From Candidatus Saccharimonadales bacterium (GTDB taxonomy: Bacteria > Patescibacteriota > Saccharimonadia > Saccharimonadales > 2-12-FULL-41-12), in assembly GCA_025451045.1 (NCBI GenBank), contig JANWLD010000003.1, positions 133,690-197,689 of the forward strand: 64,000 bases of DNA, given 5' to 3'. The notes under the pieces are model-generated. The model searched no databases and was not told the DNA's origin. It was given only the letters and a program-made list of their open reading frames with translations. Of the stretch, positions 16,081 through 45,468 are shown piece after piece (the stretch's first letter is position 1; the number at the start of each line of letters is the position of its first letter). The position numbers were made by a program, and so were the translations under genes.

Positions 16081-17490
16081 TTACAAGTCCTGCAACTGTT
16101 TTCCAAGCCGATTCAGGCAGGTCTTTTGGCCCAGTACTTCCATTGTCTCAGCCAACCCCGGGCTTGAGGCGGCTTGCGTAGTGGCGATGCGTATCAGGCT
16201 GAAGAGCACCGCCGGCTTTTCACCGGTGGTTTGAAGCAGCCCATTCAATGTTTCCTGAAGTTTATCGGCTTTAAACCCAGCTAGCTTTTCCAGCTCGGTT
16301 TTAGTAATTTCCAGCAGTTCTTTGAGCTGGCTTTTGTCGTATTTTTTTAGTTGCTTGTGTTCGCTTATCAGCTTTGGATTTACTGGCAAATCCTCAAAGA
16401 AAAAGCCCGTCAACTCTGGCAATTCGGCAAAAAATTTAAGCCGCTGCTGGACCAATGAAAGCACTTTATTTTTATATTCTTCATCATAATTTTCGGCAGT
16501 TTTGGGCCAAAAACCACTCACCTTTTTATAAAGTTCATCAAGTTTCATGTGCCGGATATGCGCGCCATTGAGCCAGCTCAATCGCCGTTCGTCGAAATGC
16601 GCGCCGCTTTTTTGAATTCGGTTCAGGCTGAATTTTTTAATCAGTTCGTCAATGGTAAATACTTCCTGCTCTGTGCCGTCGTTCCAGCCCAGTGCGGCTA
16701 AAAAGTTTATCATCGCTTCGGGCAGATAACCTTGCTCGCGATATTCTAAAATATCCTTGGCGCCGTCGCGCTTGGACAGCTTTTTGTTGCCCTGTTCGTT
16801 TAATATATGCGGCACAGTTACAAAAGTTGGAGGGTTTTCGCCTAGGGCCTCGTGCAGGTTGCGGTAATTCGGCAAGCTAGCTAAAAACTCCTGCCCGCGG
16901 ATAACGTGGCTTATCTTCATCTCCAGATCGTCGACCACATGGGCAAAATTATAGGTTGGAAAGCCATCGGATTTTATCAGGATAAAGTCATCAATTACTT
17001 CGGGACCGGTCTTAAGCTCCCCCATTACTTCGTCATGTGTGGTGTAATCTTTGGGCTCGGATTTGAACCTTAACGGCGTCTTGCCGTCCCAAGCGGGTGG
17101 GTTTTCCGGCCGGTGGTTCCGGTACAAAAACGGCTTTTTCTCGGCTTGGGCTTGCTCGCGGAATTTTTGAACTTCCTGTGGACTGTATGGGTCGCTGTAA
17201 GCTCTGCCGGCTTCAATCAGCCTGCCGGCGTATTGTCTGTACAGTTCCAGCCTCTCACTTTGAAAGAAAGGCCCTTCGTCAGGGTTTAGATTAAGCCACT
17301 CCAGGCAATCTCTGATGTGTTGCTCTGCTCCGTCGACTTTGCGCTTCTGGTCGGTATCTTCTATCCGCAAGATAAACTGGCCGCCGGCTTGTTTTGCGAC
17401 CAGCCACGCGAACAGAGCGGTGCGCATGCCGCCGGCGTGTAAAAAGCCCGTTGGGCTCGGCGCAAACCTCGTATGAACATTTTTTGACAT
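16081..17490 (-). CDS. gltX: Glutamate--tRNA ligase
   Basis: RFAPSPTGFLHAGG (HIGH-type) and KLSKRDG (KMSKS-type) motifs; start set at MSKNVHTRF (track ORF extends to 17520). Confidence 0.93.
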   Translation of the reverse strand: MSKNVHTRFAPSPTGFLHAGGMRTALFAWLVAKQAGGQFILRIEDTDQKRKVDGAEQHIRDCLEWLNLNPDEGPFFQSERLELYRQYAGRLIEAGRAYSDPYSPQEVQKFREQAQAEKKPFLYRNHRPENPPAWDGKTPLRFKSEPKDYTTHDEVMGELKTGPEVIDDFILIKSDGFPTYNFAHVVDDLEMKISHVIRGQEFLASLPNYRNLHEALGENPPTFVTVPHILNEQGNKKLSKRDGAKDILEYREQGYLPEAMINFLAALGWNDGTEQEVFTIDELIKKFSLNRIQKSGAHFDERRLSWLNGAHIRHMKLDELYKKVSGFWPKTAENYDEEYKNKVLSLVQQRLKFFAELPELTGFFFEDLPVNPKLISEHKQLKKYDKSQLKELLEITKTELEKLAGFKADKLQETLNGLLQTTGEKPAVLFSLIRIATTQAASSPGLAETMEVLGQKTCLNRLGKQLQDL

Positions 17491-17553
17491 TAAATGTATT
17501 TTAACAGTGTTCTTTATCAAAAGAACATAAGTTTGATGATATTCTAAAGAATT

Positions 17554-26273: not shown

Positions 26274-26306
26274 TAAAATAAAAATCGCCCGCTCTTCAGC
26301 GGACGA
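26274..26306 (-). terminator. Attenuator terminator upstream of DAHP synthase
   Basis: Minus strand: UCGUCCGCU-GAAG-AGCGGGCGA (9 bp, one G.U), then AUUUUUAUUUU; SD AAGGAG and ATG follow within ~25 nt. Confidence 0.7.
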
Positions 26307-26329
26307 GGTGCTTTTTCTTAGTAGTTTAT

Positions 26330-26410
26330 TTAAAACGCAAATTGAGCACTGTCCGCGCTAAGCGGCATAAAGTAAGTGCTAAACCAATACTGTTTTAAAT
26401 ATGTTTTCAC
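26330..26410 (-). CDS. Aromatic-rich leader peptide (V/M)KTYLKQYWFSTYFMPLSADSAQFAF
   Basis: 27-codon ORF from GTG; 8 of 26 residues are Tyr/Trp/Phe; sits between a promoter-like element and the terminator in front of DAHP synthase. Confidence 0.55.
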   Translation of the reverse strand: MKTYLKQYWFSTYFMPLSADSAQFAF

Positions 26411-26417
26411 GATTACT

Positions 26418-26447
26418 ACTATACTACATTTATTTTGCTAATGCAAA
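26418..26447 (-). promoter_or_regulatory. Putative promoter of the aromatic leader
   Basis: TTTGCA (26442-26447), 18-nt spacer, TATAGT (26418-26423), 7 nt, GTG. Confidence 0.4.
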
Positions 26448-26448
26448 C

Positions 26449-26700
26449 CTATCTTTTGAATTTGCGCTTGCCCGACCCGCGAAGTCTTCTCGCGGCTCTA
26501 GTGATCATATCCAGCTCAGGACCCTGTCTTGCCGGCGGCGTTTTCTTATCTTCTTTACGCCGTCCTTTTGGTTCTTCTGAGGCTTCCGAGGCGTCAGGTT
26601 CGGTCGAATCCTTGGCAACTATATCTTCGGCTTCGCCCGTGCTGCCTCTGACTTCAATATCATCATTCCCCAGCATTTCCATATCTATATTATAGCGCAC
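26449..26700 (-). CDS. Hypothetical disordered 83-aa protein (acidic N-terminal half, basic C-terminus)
   Basis: ORF co-oriented with the M20 peptidase gene and overlapping its end by 16 nt; low complexity, so uncertain. Confidence 0.35.
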   Translation of the reverse strand: MRYNIDMEMLGNDDIEVRGSTGEAEDIVAKDSTEPDASEASEEPKGRRKEDKKTPPARQGPELDMITRAARRLRGSGKRKFKR

Positions 26701-27767
26701 TGCTCGAGATATTTACGGAGTATAGTGGTTAGCTGAATAACTCCTTCGGCGTCCACCCACTCGCTGTCAGCATGCCGCCCGCCGCCGTTAGGCTGGATAA
26801 CGACACAAGGTATATTATGGGCACAAAAATACCGCGCGTCGGTTGAGCCGACAGAATGGCTCTTGGGGATTTTCCGGCCCAGCACTGTTTCGGCAGTCCG
26901 GATAAAGTCGATTATTTCCGGTTTTTCGGTATCTACGTTTATGCACGAGAAAAGTTCGATGTTTTTACTGTCCACGCCATGTTTTAGGCATATCTTCTCC
27001 ACTTGAGCCTTGAGACTTTCATATATTTCACTGGTTTTGAACCGGATGTCTAAAACAGCTTCGGCGTGGTCGGGAATCTGGTTCATGGCTTTGCCGGAGC
27101 TGATTTTCGTAAGCGACAGTGTCAATTCTTCGTCAGAGTAGTCTTCGCGGAGTTTGTGAAGTTCGTGTATCGTTCGGGTCAAGATTTCCGCGGCGTTTAT
27201 TCCTTTGTGAGGGACAGAGCCATGGGCGTTCTTGCCGGTTTTTGAAAGTTTGACGAACCAGGCGCCGTTGCCGGTCGACTCCAAGTGCCAGTCTTTGCCG
27301 GAATCCGGCAGAATACAAACATTGGCGCCGTAGCCTTGGTTGAGCAAGGCTTCAACGCCGTTGTGGCCGCCGATTTCTTCGTCAAAACTGAGCATAATAC
27401 CAAAATCGTATTTGGAGGTGTCTTTTCCAAGGTCATTAATTAGCTTCATATAGCTAGCGCAAGCGAATTTCATATCGAAAGTACCCCGGCCTTTCAGCTT
27501 ACCGTCTTCTCTTTTCATTTTAAAAAGCTTGTCACCCGCTGGTACGACATCCATATGGCATTGAAGCATTACTTTCGGTTTTTTGGTCTTTTGAGCGGTA
27601 GCAACGACATTAGGATAACCGTCGGACTCTATTAGCTTGGTATGCAGGCCGTGAGATTTGAAAAATTCAGCGCAATGCTCAGCGCAGGCTTTTGAGGCCT
27701 TTTTATCGGCTGTAACCGAAGCAAAGGCCACCAGTTCTTCCAGATAGTCAGCTTCACTCTTCATGCC
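26685..27767 (-). CDS. M20-family metallopeptidase/deacylase (ArgE/DapE-like)
   Basis: LQCHMDVVPAGD, GRGTFDMK and SFDEEIGG metal-ligand motifs; start placed at the internal MGMKSE (track ORF extends to 27833). Confidence 0.8.
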   Translation of the reverse strand, partial: GMKSEADYLEELVAFASVTADKKASKACAEHCAEFFKSHGLHTKLIESDGYPNVVATAQKTKKPKVMLQCHMDVVPAGDKLFKMKREDGKLKGRGTFDMKFACASYMKLINDLGKDTSKYDFGIMLSFDEEIGGHNGVEALLNQGYGANVCILPDSGKDWHLESTGNGAWFVKLSKTGKNAHGSVPHKGINAAEILTRTIHELHKLREDYSDEELTLSLTKISSGKAMNQIPDHAEAVLDIRFKTSEIYESLKAQVEKICLKHGVDSKNIELFSCINVDTEKPEIIDFIRTAETVLGRKIPKSHSVGSTDARYFCAHNIPCVVIQPNGGGRHADSEWVDAEGVIQLTTILRKYLEQCAII

Positions 27768-27801
27768 CATATTATAGGCTAAATCCGGGTAAATCGCTTC
27801 C

Positions 27802-28215
27802 TTAGGCCGCTTGCTGTATTTCGACCGGCTCAACTGTTTGAGCGGTTGATGCTCTGCCCAAGTCCTTCTCTACGTCAAGTTCGGACAGCCGATCATGCAG
27901 ATTGTGCGGAAGCTCATGGACAAGCTGGACATAATTAGTAATGGGCATGCGGATAATTGGTTTGCCTTCGGCTACCTTTATCCATGCCGCGGGCTTGCCG
28001 CGTTCCTGTTTTGCTTTGGCAAAAGTGTCGTTACGCTTGGTAAGTACCGTGCTATTCGGGTCGAAAGTGCCATCTTCGTATACATAGCGTTCAACGCCGT
28101 TTTGCATGGTCGTAACCCTCATCCTTGGCCCTTCGTATGATTCCGGATAACCCAGTAATTTCTTGCCGTCAGGATAAATTTTTCTTTGCGGCGGTTTGTA
28201 CATCTTTTTGTTCAT
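27802..28215 (-). CDS. Hypothetical 137-aa protein, first gene after the Leu/Ile/Val leader
   Basis: ORF with SD AGGAG; no recognisable motif. Confidence 0.55.
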   Translation of the reverse strand: MNKKMYKPPQRKIYPDGKKLLGYPESYEGPRMRVTTMQNGVERYVYEDGTFDPNSTVLTKRNDTFAKAKQERGKPAAWIKVAEGKPIIRMPITNYVQLVHELPHNLHDRLSELDVEKDLGRASTAQTVEPVEIQQAA

Positions 28216-28235
28216 TTCTCACTCCTCTCTAAATT

Positions 28236-28264
28236 AAAAACTCCCGCTTGGTTAGCGGGAGCTC
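28236..28264 (-). terminator. Attenuator terminator (Leu/Ile/Val leader)
   Basis: Minus strand: AGCUCCCGCU-AACCA-AGCGGGAGUU, then UUUAAUUU; the structural-gene SD lies ~15 nt downstream. Confidence 0.75.
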
Positions 28265-28287
28265 ATTTTCTTAGGTTAATTACAAGC

Positions 28288-28347
28288 TTACCCGCTGGTC
28301 TCCGGGGCCACTACTACTGCGATTGCGAGTATTAATGATTTGCTCAT
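28288..28347 (-). CDS. Leader peptide MSKSLILAIAVVVAPETSG
   Basis: 20-codon ORF; 7 of 19 residues are Leu/Ile/Val, plus 4 Ala; AGCGGG-UA-AGCU around the stop codon is complementary to the terminator 5' arm. Confidence 0.65.
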   Translation of the reverse strand: MSKSLILAIAVVVAPETSG

Positions 28348-28353
28348 AATTCC

Positions 28354-28382
28354 ACCTTACGCCTCTCTGTTAATGTTGTCAA
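28354..28382 (-). promoter_or_regulatory. Putative promoter of the Leu/Ile/Val leader, with its -35 overlapping the upstream stop codon
   Basis: TTGACA (28377-28382, contains the TGA stop of the 528-aa gene), 17-nt spacer, TAAGGT (28354-28359), 6 nt, ATG. Confidence 0.4.
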
Positions 28383-29965
28383 GCAGCTTTCTTAGCTTCA
28401 GCTTTTTGGACTCGTTCTTCGGCACGGTCAATTACATTGACAGCATGCATCAAAGCCTCAACTCCAGCTCTTTCTGAAACTTTTGATTTGGCGTGGGTGT
28501 CTATTTCGTATCCGTTATGTTTGACGGTCGCGAATATTCTGACCGCAGCATCTGAACCTTCTTCCAGATCATCAACGTGCCAGCCGCCAATATCAAACTC
28601 AAAACCTACGATAAACTGCATCACCTGCTTTGCGGCATCTACTACGCCGCCTTCTGATTTGACAGTCTTTTTCTGTCCGTTGATGGTGAGGGTTGCCTCG
28701 CAAATCCCCTCTGTGTCTCCGCTGAAAGAGAAAGTCTCAAGATTGAACTTGTCTTCCATCTTCTCCCCGGTCACTCCGCTAGCAAGTTTTTCGAGGTCAT
28801 TGTGGCCGAGATTTCTGTCTTCATTTGTTGAGAGGTCTTTAACAGCTTCCGTTACCCTCAATAGTTCATCGTCACCCACATTTACATTTAGTCTGGAAAG
28901 TTCGTATCGGACCCCGGCTTTGCCGCTTTGGTCATTTATCTTGAACTCAAAAGGCTTATCAAAACCGAATGTCGAAGAAGGAAAGTTCTTAAAGGTTCCC
29001 TCGTCTTTGATTACGCCGTCCTGATGCATGCCGGAACCGTGCACATAGCTTTTGCGGCCAATGAACGGTTGAGTTTCTGCAACACGTACGCCAAGTGCCC
29101 GCGGCGCTACGCTATGGGTCAGATTACGCAATTTCAACGGGTCGACATTTGTCCTAAGACCCAGTTCTGGCTGGACGGCTATATTACCGACCACCAGTTC
29201 TAAAGGAGTGTTGCCATTGCGCTCACCGACTCCGCCGATTGTTACCTCAACCTGTTCGGCACCGCCGAAACGCAAGGCATCCACGCTATTCATTACCGAT
29301 TGCCCCAAGTCATTGTGGCAATGGGCTGCGATGACTACATCTTTAAAGCCCTGGCTGTCCAGTTCTTCACGTACTGCCAATAGTCTTTCGGAGTATTCTC
29401 TTGGCAACATAGCCCCTACGGTATCAGGAAGCATCATAGTTGTTGCACCAGTGTTGGCTACGGCAAGAACCGTTTTTTTCAAAAACTCCAAGTCAGCCCT
29501 TGTTGAATCTTCAAACGAGAATTCTACGTCATGCGTATGTTCCTTCGCCTGTTTGGTTGATTTAACTGCGAGTTCAAGCAGGCTTTTTCTGCCCATGCCG
29601 AGACGTTCTTTTATGTGCAAATCACTGACCGGCGCGCAAACGTTAATCCGAGCCCTATCACCGGCCGGTTCCAACGCCCGGCCGGCTTGTTCTATATCTT
29701 CAGGCAGTGTTCGAGCAAAAGCGGCTATGATAGGACCGTTTACTTTATCTGCGATATTTCGAACGGTTGCAAAATTGCCGCGGCTGGATCCGGGAAAACC
29801 GGCTTCAATCACATCCGTACCGGCTTCCGCCAAGCTTTCGGCAATGTATAAGGCGTTTTCCTTATTGGCGCTTGCATCGGGTGATTGGACTCCGTCGCGA
29901 AGCGTGGTATCAAAAATTATCACATTGGTTGGTTCTTTAAGTTGTTCTCCGCCTTGCTCTCTCAT
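28379..29965 (-). CDS. LeuA/CimA-family 2-alkylmalate synthase, 528 aa (citramalate synthase inferred from its Ile leader)
   Basis: FDTTLRDGVQS, HCHNDLG, and a C-terminal LeuA-dimer-type regulatory domain. Confidence 0.88.
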   Translation of the reverse strand: MREQGGEQLKEPTNVIIFDTTLRDGVQSPDASANKENALYIAESLAEAGTDVIEAGFPGSSRGNFATVRNIADKVNGPIIAAFARTLPEDIEQAGRALEPAGDRARINVCAPVSDLHIKERLGMGRKSLLELAVKSTKQAKEHTHDVEFSFEDSTRADLEFLKKTVLAVANTGATTMMLPDTVGAMLPREYSERLLAVREELDSQGFKDVVIAAHCHNDLGQSVMNSVDALRFGGAEQVEVTIGGVGERNGNTPLELVVGNIAVQPELGLRTNVDPLKLRNLTHSVAPRALGVRVAETQPFIGRKSYVHGSGMHQDGVIKDEGTFKNFPSSTFGFDKPFEFKINDQSGKAGVRYELSRLNVNVGDDELLRVTEAVKDLSTNEDRNLGHNDLEKLASGVTGEKMEDKFNLETFSFSGDTEGICEATLTINGQKKTVKSEGGVVDAAKQVMQFIVGFEFDIGGWHVDDLEEGSDAAVRIFATVKHNGYEIDTHAKSKVSERAGVEALMHAVNVIDRAEERVQKAEAKKAA

Positions 29966-29982: not shown

Positions 29983-30007
29983 AAAAACTCCCGCTTTCGC
30001 GGGAGCT
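29983..30007 (-). terminator. Attenuator terminator (Ile leader)
   Basis: Minus strand: AAGCUCCCGC-GAAA-GCGGGAGUUU, then UUAAUUU; SD AAGGAGA and ATG follow directly. Confidence 0.78.
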
Positions 30008-30032
30008 TAGCTTTCAAAAACAAAAAGTAAAC

Positions 30033-30086
30033 TTACCCGCGTGCCTCCGGGATAATAATTATTGTGTCAATAATCTGTTTACTCAT
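30033..30086 (-). CDS. Ile-rich leader peptide MSKQIIDTIIIIPEARG
   Basis: 18-codon ORF; 6 of 17 residues are Ile, including a run of four; CGCGGG-UA-AGUU around the stop codon is complementary to the terminator 5' arm. Confidence 0.7.
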   Translation of the reverse strand: MSKQIIDTIIIIPEARG

Positions 30087-30094
30087 CGTCTGAG

Positions 30095-30123
30095 ATTGTA
30101 TAACCTTGAGAATTAGTTGTCAA
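30095..30123 (-). promoter_or_regulatory. Putative promoter of the Ile leader
   Basis: TTGACA (30118-30123), 17-nt spacer, TACAAT (30095-30100), 8 nt, ATG. Confidence 0.55.
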
Positions 30124-30130
30124 CTTTTGG

Positions 30131-31981
30131 TTATTTATAATATGAACTTTGGAACATCTTTGTCATGGATCTTTTATGTATTTCTCTTTGGTGGCGCCAT
30201 TCAGCCCTTTTTATAAGGTTAACTGCTTTGATATAGGCGTGGATGGTGGCGTTGTTCAGGCTGGTGCCTTCGCTGTATGCAGTTACGGTCACGCCTTTAT
30301 AAGCCACCTTGACTATAGCTCCTGCTTCAGAATCGGAGCCGCTATGAAGGGCAAAAGGTTTCGCATCTTCAATATCCCCGCTAAAGTCAAGTATCTTACC
30401 GATGGCGATTCTGGCGGCATCTACTTCCCCCTTGTTGCTCGTGGCTTTTTCTGTTCGTCTCTTGCCGTCTATATTTAAAGTTATTTTGGCATAGTCATCA
30501 TTTTCCTTCCCGTGGGATTTTGCGTGCAGTTCACTATCTGTCATTTTTATAGCGTCGTCCTGCCCGTGGAATAACTGTTCAAGCGCGAAGGCCTCGATTT
30601 CTAGATCGGTTATGGGCTGTTTCCTTGTTTTTGAAACGGTGTTGGAGTTGATAACTATTTGTTCTATATCAAGCTTAGCTACATCAAAGGCTAGATCGGT
30701 TAATCTTTTCACGGTTTCTTCCGAATTAATTACCAATTCTGACTTGTAGATGTCCGTACCGCCAAGATTGGCCCGACCAGCTTTACCTTGGTACTTCCCA
30801 TCTTCCAATATAGCCGCGACGGGATGTCCGAAGCCTCGGTTGTCTACAGCGGCGTAGGTCGCGGCCCCTCCTTTATTAATAGCATCCGAATGAACGCCCG
30901 AGCGGTGAACTATAGTATGGAAACCGGTGACGGGGGTATCGGGGTCAAGCTCCAATCCGGCGGCGTCTAATAGGCCTTCTGCTACGGCTTTCAACTTGGT
31001 TGTATCCACCGTAATTACTACGGGCGCGGCAAACTCATCCCGATCGGTCAGAACGTTGCGTACATAAGGCGCTAAATACATATTGCCGTTGCGTTCGCCT
31101 TTGCCGGGAGCGCTGACTGACTCCACTTGAAAGTCCGGTATAGCTGAACTTCTTGCTAACGCGGCGTTTATTACCGCATGCATTGAAGATATGGTGTTTT
31201 GAACGGCTCTCTGGCCATCATCGTGGTTGTGGCTCGATATCGTAATCTCTTCCACCCTGCCTTCGTCAATCATCCAGTTTGTCGCGGCGTCGAATATTTT
31301 GGCCATGCGGATAGGACTGGCAGCTCCTAGAGTGTCGGGCAGGTTAATTACATTTATATCTTCCTGCAGTGCGGTTCTGACTGCTCTTTCTAAGAAGACC
31401 ATATCAGTTGTAGAAGCTGCTTCGCAGGAAAACTCTACCGTACCATCAGGTCCTATTGCATCTCGGGCTCTGCGTATACTGTCCACGCCCATTTCAAGTA
31501 CTTCTTCCCTGGTCATGGCAGGGTGTTTTGCGCGCATGTGTTCTTCGGCGGTGGCGATAAATACATGTATTCCGGGTCTGTCAGCTTCTTCTACGGCTCT
31601 GGCTGCTTGCTCAATTCCTGCCGGATTAGCCAGAGTAAGTCCGGTAATGACAGGCGTCCAGATTTTTGGCGGCAAGTCTACCCAGTTACCATTTTCAATA
31701 GACTTCGGTAATATCTGGTACTGGGTTTGCCCGACTGTTCTGGCTACTTCAGCTATTTCTTCTTCATCGCCCATACTGGCTGGAAAGCCAGCTTCGATTA
31801 CGTCTACTCCCTGGCTTACTATCAACTCCGCCAGCTCGACTTTTGAGCCTTCAGGGAATTGATTCTCCTGAGGCAAAGACTGCGCCCCGTCGCGTAGCGT
31901 AGTGTCGAATATCTCTATTTTCATTGCCGCCGGATCAAATTCCGGTTTAGAAGGCAGTGTTTCTACTTGGCTTTGTATCAT
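30131..31981 (-). CDS. LeuA-family 2-isopropylmalate synthase-like enzyme, 616 aa
   Basis: FDTTLRDGAQS, SSHNHDDG (HxH) and a C-terminal LeuA-dimer-type domain; preceded by a Leu-rich leader. Confidence 0.85.
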   Translation of the reverse strand: MIQSQVETLPSKPEFDPAAMKIEIFDTTLRDGAQSLPQENQFPEGSKVELAELIVSQGVDVIEAGFPASMGDEEEIAEVARTVGQTQYQILPKSIENGNWVDLPPKIWTPVITGLTLANPAGIEQAARAVEEADRPGIHVFIATAEEHMRAKHPAMTREEVLEMGVDSIRRARDAIGPDGTVEFSCEAASTTDMVFLERAVRTALQEDINVINLPDTLGAASPIRMAKIFDAATNWMIDEGRVEEITISSHNHDDGQRAVQNTISSMHAVINAALARSSAIPDFQVESVSAPGKGERNGNMYLAPYVRNVLTDRDEFAAPVVITVDTTKLKAVAEGLLDAAGLELDPDTPVTGFHTIVHRSGVHSDAINKGGAATYAAVDNRGFGHPVAAILEDGKYQGKAGRANLGGTDIYKSELVINSEETVKRLTDLAFDVAKLDIEQIVINSNTVSKTRKQPITDLEIEAFALEQLFHGQDDAIKMTDSELHAKSHGKENDDYAKITLNIDGKRRTEKATSNKGEVDAARIAIGKILDFSGDIEDAKPFALHSGSDSEAGAIVKVAYKGVTVTAYSEGTSLNNATIHAYIKAVNLIKRAEWRHQREIHKRSMTKMFQSSYYK

Positions 31982-31993
31982 TTTTTCTCCATT

Positions 31994-32024
31994 AAATTAA
32001 AAATAGGCTTCTTGGTTGAAGCCT
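31994..32024 (-). terminator. Attenuator terminator (Leu leader)
   Basis: Minus strand: AGGCUUC-AACCAA-GAAGCCU, then AUUUUUAAUUU; SD GGAGA lies ~15 nt downstream. Confidence 0.7.
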
Positions 32025-32063
32025 GATGCTTTGGGCTGTACTGTGGCTCCGATACCCTCGGAA

Positions 32064-32141
32064 CTAGGCTTCAACCATGCTGAAGCACAGCCCTTTAAGG
32101 CTGAGTAGGAGGTCCAAGTGCTTCGCTATGTATGAAACCAT
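32064..32141 (-). CDS. Leu-rich leader peptide MVSYIAKHLDLLLSLKGLCFSMVEA
   Basis: 26-codon ORF; 6 Leu, clustered as LDLLLSLKGL; its last codons GGUUGAAGCCU(AG) are an 11-nt perfect complement of the terminator 5' arm plus loop. Confidence 0.72.
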   Translation of the reverse strand: MVSYIAKHLDLLLSLKGLCFSMVEA

Positions 32142-32150
32142 ATCAAAATA

Positions 32151-32179
32151 ACGATAACCCGCTTTAGGTCTTTTGTCAA
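32151..32179 (-). promoter_or_regulatory. Putative promoter of the Leu leader
   Basis: TTGACA (32174-32179), 17-nt spacer, TATCGT (32151-32156), 9 nt, ATG. Confidence 0.5.
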
Positions 32180-44439: not shown

Positions 44440-45468
44440 ATGACTGACAAGACTTCCGACTACAAAATTGCGACTCTTGGGAGCCATTCCGCGCTTCAGA
44501 TACTAAAAGGCGCGCGCGACGAAGGCTTTAAAACAATGATAATCGCCCTCAAGGGACGGACTCAGCCGTATGAGTCTTTCAAAGTTGCCGATGAGATAAT
44601 TGAGCTGGAATCATTCAAGGACCTCCCCGGTTTGGAACAGCGGCTGATTGATGAGAATGTGATTTTAGTACCGCACGGCTCATTTTTTAGCGCCTATACC
44701 GATTTGGAGGCATTAAACCAATCCGACGCGCTTTACTTCGGTAATAAAAAGATTTTGCCATGGGAACAAAGCCGGACTAAACAGCGTGAATGGCTGAAAA
44801 AAGCCGGACTGACCCTGCCGAAGATTTATGATAAGCCCGAAGATATCGACGGCCCTTGCATCATCAAGTTTTATGGTGCTGGCGGCGGCAAAGGATACTT
44901 TTTGGCCAAGACCGCCGAAGAGTTTTATGAAAAAATCAAACCTCATAAAGACAAGAGATACATAATCCAGCAATACATCGTCGGAGCGCCGCTGTATGTA
45001 CATTACTTCTACTCGCCGCTAACAGGCGAGCTCGAAGTGATGAGCATGGACAAGCGTTACGAGACCAACGTCGATTCCATCGGGCGTATAAGCGCCAAAG
45101 ACCAACTGGATTTGAATATCGAAAGCTCTTACAACATCATGGGCAACCTGCCGGTGGTAGTACGCGAATCGATGTTGCCGCAGATATTTTCTATGGGTGA
45201 AGAGGTCGTTAAGGTTTCCAAGAAACTGGAGCCGGGCGGACTCACCGGACCGTTTTGCCTGGAAACAATAGTCACGCCGGAACTGGAATTTTATGTATTT
45301 GAAATTTCCGCCCGCATCGTCGCGGGGACTAATCCGTACATCAACGGCTCGCCCTATACTGATCTTCGTTACAAAGAACCAATGAGTACCGGTCGCCGCG
45401 TAGCACGAGAGATAAAGCTAGCATTAGAAAGTGATGAAATAGAAAAGGTTTTGATAAATGGCAATTGA
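44440..45468 (+). CDS. purP: Archaeal-type 5-formaminoimidazole-4-carboxamide ribonucleotide (FAICAR) synthetase, PurP family
   Basis: IATLGSHSALQILKGARDEGFKT N-terminal signature, then an ATP-grasp region. Confidence 0.78.
   Translation: MTDKTSDYKIATLGSHSALQILKGARDEGFKTMIIALKGRTQPYESFKVADEIIELESFKDLPGLEQRLIDENVILVPHGSFFSAYTDLEALNQSDALYFGNKKILPWEQSRTKQREWLKKAGLTLPKIYDKPEDIDGPCIIKFYGAGGGKGYFLAKTAEEFYEKIKPHKDKRYIIQQYIVGAPLYVHYFYSPLTGELEVMSMDKRYETNVDSIGRISAKDQLDLNIESSYNIMGNLPVVVRESMLPQIFSMGEEVVKVSKKLEPGGLTGPFCLETIVTPELEFYVFEISARIVAGTNPYINGSPYTDLRYKEPMSTGRRVAREIKLALESDEIEKVLINGN

Follow-up and report, generated by a model that had tools for sequence, protein, structure and literature searches.

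The 64,000-nucleotide (nt) stretch of Candidatus Saccharimonadales DNA analyzed here (the window; assembly GCA_025451045.1, contig JANWLD010000003.1, positions 133,690 to 197,689) contains, at 28236 to 28382, an element that we judge to be, with high probability, a ribosome-mediated leader-peptide transcription attenuator. As read from its sequence, it would report the supply of charged Val-, Leu-, and Ile-tRNA and control an operon of a 137-amino-acid (137-aa) orphan open reading frame (ORF) and an M20 hydrolase gene. We computed directly the leader ORF, the geometry of its promoter, the two helices that exclude each other and how well these are conserved, and the tie between what a leader encodes and the function of the genes behind it. 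An earlier reading of this DNA (the original prediction) had placed a mixed Leu/Ile/Val leader directly past the gene for a 528-aa synthase, and reading of the minus strand, which is the strand of every relevant gene and element at the locus, bears this placement out (Table 1).

In the mechanism that we favor, transcription from TTGACA-17-TAAGGT would start no more than a few bases from the A of the leader ATG, and with such a start a ribosome could load on the 5' end once it has emerged. When branched-chain amino acids are plentiful, the ribosome would reach the TAA stop codon and cover AGCGGG-UAA-GCUUGU, the free 5' arm of the terminator would pair with AGCGGGAG, and RNA polymerase would stop at the U5 tract, at approximately 28236. 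When they are scarce, the ribosome would stall in codons 5 to 13 with AGCGGG-UA-AGCUUGU just past its leading edge. This segment would pair with AUGAGCU-CCCGCU once the latter is made, no terminator would form, and the polymerase would enter the operon. The transcription start, the stalling, the termination efficiency, and the physiological signal are what we infer from the computed features.

Leader ORF and regulatory codons

Seven of the nine codons at positions 5 to 13 of the 19-codon leader specify Leu, Ile, or Val, giving a short ORF in which the codons predicted to be sensed are clustered. In the 35 leaders of the family that we assembled (see below), the ORF is intact, in register, and 15 to 21 codons long, and 41% of the residues are Leu, Ile, or Val. 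The valine codons vary synonymously across these leaders (GTA, 28; GTG, 32; GTC, 15; GTT, 2). The description of the leader as mixed is correct for the window copy, but its orthologues (MSKSLVLSMVVVIPETSG, MSKLSVLSVVVVLPNPSG, MSKSLTLSVVVFVPGVSG, MSKRIILNVVILPDYSG, MSKSLTLNVVVVIPEVSG, MSKSLSLIAAVVIIPEISG, MSKSLVLNVVVVIPETSG, MSRSLVLSVVVVIPEVSG, and MSKQLVLVAVVLPPSG) are dominated by valine, usually as a VVV(V) run flanked by two Leu and at least one Ile. As judged from these predicted peptides, the element is a valine-dominated Val/Leu/Ile leader, of which the window copy is one of the more mixed representatives.

A second leader upstream, rich in Ile, shares with the mixed leader the MSK start and the P-E-x-x-G-stop end that had been pointed out for both. 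The end does not stand as a peptide signature, however. Of the 35 leaders, 33 have NGC-GGG as their final two codons, and the remaining two stop 2 nt earlier, at a TAG; the nucleotides CCGGAG are kept even across a reading-frame shift (P-E-x versus P-G-G). Because both motifs are fixed at the nucleotide level, we read the conserved end as a constraint on the RNA and not on the peptide.

Mutually exclusive helices and ribosome position

A GC-rich stem of 8 to 11 base pairs (bp) followed by U5 (28264 to 28236) lies ahead of the first gene, with no intervening promoter. The terminator scan gives it 11 pairs, 6 of them G-C, and a 5-nt loop, and its calculated energy is -17.8 kcal/mol. The window has two occurrences of the motif CTCCCGC-N3-9-GCGGGAGTTTT, where the expected number is 0, and the second of them belongs to the Ile leader. 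The original prediction had AGCGGG-UA-AGCU pair with AGCU-CCCGCU as 6 + 4 bp. The pairing is real, but it is longer than claimed: the antiterminator folds as 6 + 7 bp with a UA bulge (-14.3 kcal/mol). Antiterminator and terminator share CUCCCGCU. Both the folding and the conservation of the pairing identify an alternative helix that excludes the terminator, and its formation is predicted to depend on the position of the ribosome.

In order to model this dependence, we folded the nascent RNA up to the terminator loop, before the 3' arm is made, with a ribosome footprint imposed. With the ribosomal A site at any of codons 9 to 13, the antiterminator is the minimum-energy fold, at approximately -15 to -16 kcal/mol. 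With the A site at the stop codon, the whole 5' strand of the antiterminator is covered, this helix is impossible, and the terminator is left. An additional hairpin, CCCG:CGGG, is predicted at approximately -6 kcal/mol. In 30 of 33 copies, no more than one of the five GCGGG bases is left unpaired, and the mean z score against shuffled sequences is -0.56. This hairpin is tentatively a weak anti-antiterminator, although it is barely better than the shuffles. Based on these models, we describe the element as a compact, essentially two-state switch, in which termination would require a ribosome at the stop codon.

Promoter and probable leaderless start

The perfect -35 hexamer TTGACA contains, as originally noted, the TGA stop codon of the 528-aa gene (28381 to 28379), and the stop codon overlaps the -35 hexamer also in five related loci (L001, L048, L052, L053, and L076). 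The proposed internal promoter is well supported by the family. In an alignment of 32 copies on TTGAC, which all of them have, the promoters show a 17-nt spacer and a TANNNT-like -10 (A at position 2 in 27 copies and T at position 6 in 25). The distance from the first T of the -35 to the start codon is nearly fixed, at 35 to 36 nt in 22 of the 32 copies (35 nt in the mixed copy), and the start codon follows the -10 by 6 to 7 nt, also in 22 of 32 (6 nt in the mixed copy). A generic promoter scan missed this promoter because its -10 matches the consensus at few positions (see below), and it proposed TTAACA-16-AATTAT (28373 to 28346) in its place. We rejected that candidate; its -10 overlaps the ATG, and it is not conserved in the orthologues.

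With this geometry, the A of the ATG or a base adjoining it is the expected first nucleotide of the transcript, and a Shine-Dalgarno (SD) sequence would have no space ahead of the start codon. This predicted start indicates that the mixed leader is probably translated from a leaderless mRNA. The -10 hexamer TAAGGT doubles as an SD-like AAGGTGG on read-through transcripts, which could let the leader be translated also on transcripts that arrive from the synthase gene.

Conservation and covariation

Related contigs were fetched through relatives of the synthase and two homologues of the 137-aa ORF, a protein route that is blind to the RNA. All nine related contigs have the leader, the promoter, and the hairpins at the corresponding site, either behind the synthase gene or ahead of the orphan ORF (L001, L048, L050, L051, L052, L053, L054, L074, and L076). 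Contigs of sufficient length also preserve the gene order: ExoEndoPhos, an unknown ORF, HAD, LeuA-like 1, LeuA-like 2, small ORF, M20, small ORF, 3-deoxy-D-arabino-heptulosonate 7-phosphate (DAHP) synthase, and hydrolase. The Ile and mixed leaders are both present wherever a related contig reaches their positions. Scanning metagenomes with the core pattern yielded 18 further usable loci; one pattern match, L067, was discarded as a chance match in GC-rich DNA that has no leader. A covariance model built from 14 close copies has exactly two matches in the window, the Ile and mixed elements, and approximately 30 more in related contigs, including some that the pattern had missed. The cassette family totals approximately 35 copies.

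In the 14 close copies, which comprise orthologues and paralogues, 92.5% of alignment cells are paired in the antiterminator, versus 31 to 50% in slid controls, and 98.5% are paired in the terminator, with one change on both sides. The scoring of compensatory substitutions, by which the original prediction was to be checked, did not help it in this set. The outermost antiterminator pair does differ in a compensatory manner within the window (A-U in the mixed copy and C-G in the Ile copy), but it is kept in only 10 of the 14 copies, with a permutation P value of ~0.10, and no antiterminator pair has changed on both sides. A single pair of this kind is unconvincing. The wider family gives a different result. 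In a model-fitted alignment of 31 copies, pairing is kept in 89.8% of cells, versus 43 to 68% when slid, and 19 cells have changed on both sides, versus 7.9 ± 2.1 in shuffles, none of 500 of which reaches 19. The helix beyond the core is rebuilt from differing sequences across the wider family, and covariation is real in this outer extension of the antiterminator. In addition, the segment from the stop codon to the terminator folds better than interior-shuffled sequence in 26 of 27 nonredundant copies (mean z score, -1.42).

Paralogous leaders and downstream genes

The Ile attenuator has an antiterminator, CGCGGG-UA-AGUU.../...AGCU-CCCGCG, of -17.4 kcal/mol and a terminator of -17.2 kcal/mol. 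It is 68% identical to the mixed element, whereas shuffled sequences give 49% (maximum, 56%). The claim that the two attenuators are duplicates with diverged regulatory codons is supported by their kept positions in related contigs, by the covariance model, and by a leader composition that tracks the downstream gene.

Two further leaders have the same layout as the cassette, with other stems, and both are conserved in relatives. In the Leu-rich leader, the end of the ORF (GGUUGAAGCCU-UAG) is complementary to the 5' arm of its terminator, AGGCUUC-AACCAA-GAAGCCU (32024 to 32005), which lies just before the gene for a 616-aa LeuA-like protein, and the leader is conserved in L048, L051, L001, and L069 (LLLSLKGLCF). 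The aromatic-rich leader has its terminator (26306 to 26285) ahead of an AroFGH-type DAHP synthase gene, and its orthologue in L048 is MKTHNGQIWFYNYFTARRAVRAGFMFV; its match to Rfam Trp_leader is subthreshold only (20.7 bits). The four attenuators (Leu, Ile, Val/Leu/Ile, and aromatic) are chained within 6 kb of the minus strand (32179 to 26285). In L074, we also observed a Phe/Tyr-rich small ORF (MFRFSGFYFAGGEAG; approximately 393 to 515) that is followed by a terminator-like hairpin and T-run and lies upstream of a Val/Leu leader; it is possibly another type of attenuator.

Leader composition follows the genes behind the sister copies. Ile-rich leaders precede a cimA/leuA-like synthase gene and, in L069, a threonine-dehydratase-like gene. 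A mixed Val/Ile/Leu cassette in L072 precedes the gene for the acetolactate synthase large subunit (ilvB), and in L058 the cassette is followed by a small ORF, RidA, biosynthetic IlvA, and M20, of which RidA and IlvA score above the NCBIfam cutoffs. A small ORF and M20 stand behind the cassette in L048, L050, L063, and L066. Thus, the sister copies stand before cimA/leuA-like, ilvA, ridA, and ilvB genes, and the mixed copy stands before an orphan ORF and M20. No other observation argues as strongly for a sensing of amino acid supply by the elements as this agreement of leader composition with pathway, and it is the reason to suspect that the M20 operon is part of a branched-chain amino acid regulon.

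Two side observations concern the genes behind these cassettes. Behind every Val/Leu/Ile-type copy, a small (67- to 166-aa), charged, very fast-evolving ORF with a strong SD sequence comes before any enzyme gene. Mixed Ile/Val/Leu cassettes in L056 (666 to 773), L057 (681 to 788), and L061 (1700 to 1809) are located ahead of small acidic ORFs, and these are directly upstream of rplJ-rplL, which we identified by eye from N-terminal sequences.

The terminator scan detected no terminator-like site in any of three intervals: from the 616-aa gene to the Ile element, from the 528-aa gene to the mixed element, and from the M20 gene to the aromatic element. Since none lies between the synthase gene and the mixed leader, the attenuator terminator is the first one that a synthase transcript meets. 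By its architecture, the site is a plausible read-through checkpoint, as had been proposed. Each attenuator probably also terminates the preceding transcription unit, as far as this arrangement indicates.

Alternative explanations

One alternative is that the hairpin does no more than terminate the 528-aa gene, as an intrinsic terminator, and that the ORF and the complementary segment are there by chance. The hairpin is the first terminator-like site past that gene, and its GC-rich core could be conserved merely as a terminator. However, every relative has an intact ORF that begins a set distance past a conserved -35 and whose run of Val/Leu/Ile codons is preserved despite synonymous changes; the cassette is found also where there is no upstream synthase gene (L074, L058, and L072); in all but 1 of the 27 copies, the RNA from the stop codon to the terminator pairs with the 5' arm of the latter more stably than shuffled sequence does; and the next gene begins 20 nt past the U tract with no promoter of its own. 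We regard chance as an extremely improbable explanation. It is also very improbable that the small ORF encodes a functional hydrophobic micropeptide, either a membrane peptide or a signal like the short hydrophobic peptides (SHPs), with a hairpin that ends the transcript or couples the next gene. In its favor, the MSK start and the P..G end are conserved in these short, hydrophobic peptides, and by eye we take the Ile-rich copies to resemble streptococcal SHP pheromones. Against this, the C terminus is fixed as nucleotides (NGC-GGG, and CCGGAG across the frame shift) and not as peptide, and the identity of the hydrophobic core (Ile, Val/Leu/Ile, Leu, or aromatic) changes in step with the downstream pathway. 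No Rgg-type regulator, which an Rgg/SHP pair would include, is present among the 29 neighboring proteins scanned with Pfam. The leader peptide could still have a role in trans on top of attenuation.

A third possibility shares the switch but not the signal: a translation-coupled terminator that is opened by any slowing of translation or loss of ribosomes, whether from starvation, stress, or antibiotics. The antiterminator is the predicted default when no ribosome is present, the design has no strong anti-antiterminator, and the regulated genes are not known biosynthetic genes, all of which would suit an unspecific switch. A generic sensor would have no need, however, for a leader with so strongly biased a composition (41% Leu/Ile/Val, in runs) or for paralogues that are dominated by differing amino acids and stand before the matching pathways. 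We consider an unspecific switch to be unlikely and attenuation that reports Val, Leu, and Ile supply to be the better reading.

Several points weigh against that reading. Because the antiterminator is the predicted fold in the absence of a ribosome and the hairpin of the 1:2 type is weak, untranslated transcripts would read through. When the full transcript is folded to equilibrium with the ribosome footprint imposed, the mixed copy always gives the terminator (-17.8 versus -14.3 kcal/mol), so the switch must be kinetic; the two states separate only when the nascent RNA is folded. The five core pairs GCGGG:CCCGC never vary and therefore give no covariation signal. Moreover, 19 loci were found with a pattern that fixes these core pairs, and because of this selection, the relatedness of the copies, and the fitting of the 31-copy alignment to the structure, the statistics lean toward the model. 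The -10 hexamer TAAGGT matches only three of the six consensus positions. Finally, neither of the first two genes downstream of the mixed copy, the orphan ORF and the M20 hydrolase gene, is recognizable as a branched-chain gene.

A broader proposal is possible but rather doubtful: within a subgroup of Saccharimonadales, one compact leaderless cassette would have been copied, re-coded (Ile or Val/Leu/Ile), and set before both biosynthetic and nonbiosynthetic genes, with starvation for branched-chain amino acids as the general signal. If this is true, starvation would switch on scavenging or host-interaction functions in an episymbiont. The nonbiosynthetic targets would be the fast-evolving orphan small proteins, the M20 hydrolase, and the small acidic ORFs by rplJ, and each attenuator in the chain would also serve to terminate the unit ahead of it.

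Neighboring genes

The start codon of the 137-aa ORF, only 20 nt past the U tract, leaves no room for a promoter of its own. This protein has no Pfam or NCBIfam match and only two homologues among 5.8 billion proteins, both of which are encoded behind the same leader; the equivalent small ORFs behind other copies are barely alignable. The M20 protein matches NCBIfam models below all equivalog cutoffs, and its nearest solved structure is 2rb7, an uncharacterized M20 protein. Since its listed TTG start overlaps the 137-aa ORF, the true start may be further downstream. Upstream, the 616-aa LeuA-like protein (30131 to 31981, minus strand) is approximately 70 to 80 aa longer than its orthologues in L048, L001, L051, and L069 (530 to 550 aa), and its HMGL-like match covers 314 residues over 257 profile positions, which suggests that it carries an insertion. 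Elsewhere in the window, on the plus strand (44440 to 45468), is a gene for a protein with DUF1246 and DUF1297, which we take to be the domains of archaeal-type PurP (FAICAR synthetase). A protein of this type would presumably be unusual for a bacterial genome of the Saccharimonadales kind.

TABLE 1 Positions of the mixed leader, its paralogues, and the adjoining genes
Feature	Position	Strand	Description
-35 hexamer TTGACA	28377..28382	minus	TTGAC in 32/32 family copies, at a set distance to the leader start codon
-10 hexamer TAAGGT	28354..28359	minus	17 nt past the -35, 6 nt ahead of the ATG
Leader ORF MSKSLILAIAVVVAPETSG	28288..28347	minus	19 codons + TAA; ATG at 28347, TAA at 28290..28288
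Regulatory codon run, codons 5 to 13	28309..28335	minus	TTA ATA CTC GCA ATC GCA GTA GTA GTG (L I L A I A V V V)
Region 1, CCCG in Ala-Pro codons	28303..28306	minus	Can pair with CGGG at 28294..28291
Region 2, AGCGGG-UA-AGCUUGU	28282..28296	minus	Antiterminator 5' strand; last two codons, stop codon, and next 6 nt
Region 3, AUGAGCU-CCCGCU	28254..28266	minus	Antiterminator 3' strand = terminator 5' arm
Region 4, AGCGGGAG + U5 tract	28236..28248	minus	Terminator 3' arm; from terminator scan and fold
Terminator GAGCUCCCGCU-AACCA-AGCGGGAGUUU	28264..28238	minus	U5 tract ends at 28236
528-aa LeuA/CimA-like synthase gene	29965..28379	minus	HMGL-like, HCS_D2, and LeuA_dimer domains; 3' end GCT GCT TGA
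137-aa orphan ORF	28215..27802	minus	First regulated gene; SD sequence GAGGAG at 28227..28222
ArgE/DapE-like M20 metallohydrolase gene	26685..27833	minus	Second regulated gene; Pfam Peptidase_M20 and M20_dimer
Ile attenuator	29983..30123	minus	Between the 616-aa and 528-aa LeuA-family genes
Ile attenuator, promoter TTGACA-17-TACAAT	30123..30095	minus	
Ile attenuator, leader MSKQIIDTIIIIPEARG	30086..30033	minus	
Ile attenuator, terminator	30008..29985	minus	
Leu-rich leader MVSYIAKHLDLLLSLKGLCFSMVEA	32141..32064	minus	Promoter TTGACA-17-TATCGT; element 32179..32005
Aromatic-rich leader MKTYLKQYWFSTYFMPLSADSAQFAF	26410..26330	minus	GTG start; promoter TTTGCA-18-TATAGT, start 7 nt on; element 26447..26285
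Small ORF behind Val/Leu/Ile-type copy, window	28215..27802		The 137-aa ORF
Small ORF behind Val/Leu/Ile-type copy, L048	11797-12270		
Small ORF behind Val/Leu/Ile-type copy, L050	2264-2560		
Small ORF behind Val/Leu/Ile-type copy, L066	523-984		
Small ORFs behind Val/Leu/Ile-type copies, L058 and L063			

Comparison with known systems

Saccharibacteria and other Patescibacteria are usually described as lacking amino acid biosynthesis, and to our knowledge almost nothing is known about their gene regulation. The closest genomic relative of the synthase is from a Candidatus Saccharimonadales metagenome-assembled genome (67% identity). A scan of a genome collection with the synthase protein gave this one close relative only; the other hits are distant LeuA-family genes with no leader and were set aside. 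Among the 5.8 billion proteins, the synthase gene has 8 relatives at an E value of ≤1e-100, versus more than 7,600 at ≤1e-120 for GltX of the window (16081 to 17520), a difference which indicates that the amino acid gene cluster is a rare trait in the lineage. The GltX matches listed are 65 to 77% identical, and the named ones are nearly all from Candidatus Saccharimonadales, Saccharibacteria, or Patescibacteria, with one labeled Candidatus Parcubacteria. The cluster could have been acquired. The gene content scanned also includes sortase, PEGA, and DUF3048 proteins, which, like an 896-kb related contig, are in keeping with Candidatus Saccharimonadales as the source.

In Rfam, only three tRNAs pass the gathering thresholds in the whole window, and a permissive search gave no T-box match. 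The terminator region of the mixed copy reaches 20.7 bits with Trp_leader (RF00513; threshold, 41; E = 1.2), and that of the Ile copy reaches 20.1 bits with Phe_leader (RF01859; threshold, 55; E = 8.9), so neither is a member of these families. A full-text literature search for attenuation, leader peptides, or leaderless transcripts in Saccharibacteria and Patescibacteria returned nothing of this kind. The mechanism is classical and ordinary; the element is real, conserved, and uncatalogued, and in the literature searched no such switches are described in the phylum. Its interest rests on the phylum, on the reuse of one cassette before differing operons, and on the uncharacterized genes that it would regulate. 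The cassette is conserved and easily searchable, and a sequence model is ready for annotating Saccharibacteria genomes. It would tie a rare set of branched-chain and aromatic genes, an uncharacterized hydrolase, and orphan proteins to amino acid supply and offers a handle on which nutrients Saccharibacteria sense.

The ilvGMEDA and ilvBN operons of Escherichia coli have leader-peptide attenuators with multivalent Val/Leu/Ile control. Like them, the Saccharimonadales element has a short ORF with Val/Leu/Ile runs and a terminator before the first structural gene, and a ribosome that finishes the ORF would cover the 5' strand of the antiterminator. Unlike them, it is small (a 19-codon leader and ~112 nt from the start codon to the U tract), leaves no space for an SD sequence at its start codon, lacks a stable 1:2 pause or anti-antiterminator hairpin, has an antiterminator strand that spans the stop codon, and is followed by an orphan ORF and an M20 hydrolase gene. 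In this compact attenuator, the longer four-segment design would give way to a start without an untranslated leader and to an antiterminator that contains the stop codon.

Leader-peptide attenuation outside the Proteobacteria has been described for ilvBNC of Corynebacterium glutamicum, with a three-hairpin model (PMC11857589), and for ilvB1NC of Mycobacterium tuberculosis, with a 166-nt leader (PMC13236596). The Saccharimonadales cassette resembles these in kind, but the actinobacterial attenuators are long leaders before ilvB, whereas the cassette is compact and is duplicated before several operons. Leaderless ORFs of a similar type have been proposed in Deinococcus deserti, with 14 predicted leader-peptide attenuators (PMC4007540), and in mycobacteria, with polycysteine short ORFs (bioRxiv 10.1101/834739). 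In these leaderless ORFs, as in ours, the start codon is the transcription start, which in our case is inferred from the promoter geometry, and the sensed amino acid is enriched in the peptide. The Saccharimonadales leaders differ from them in belonging to the phylum Patescibacteria/Saccharibacteria and in the amino acids that they would sense, Val, Leu, and Ile.

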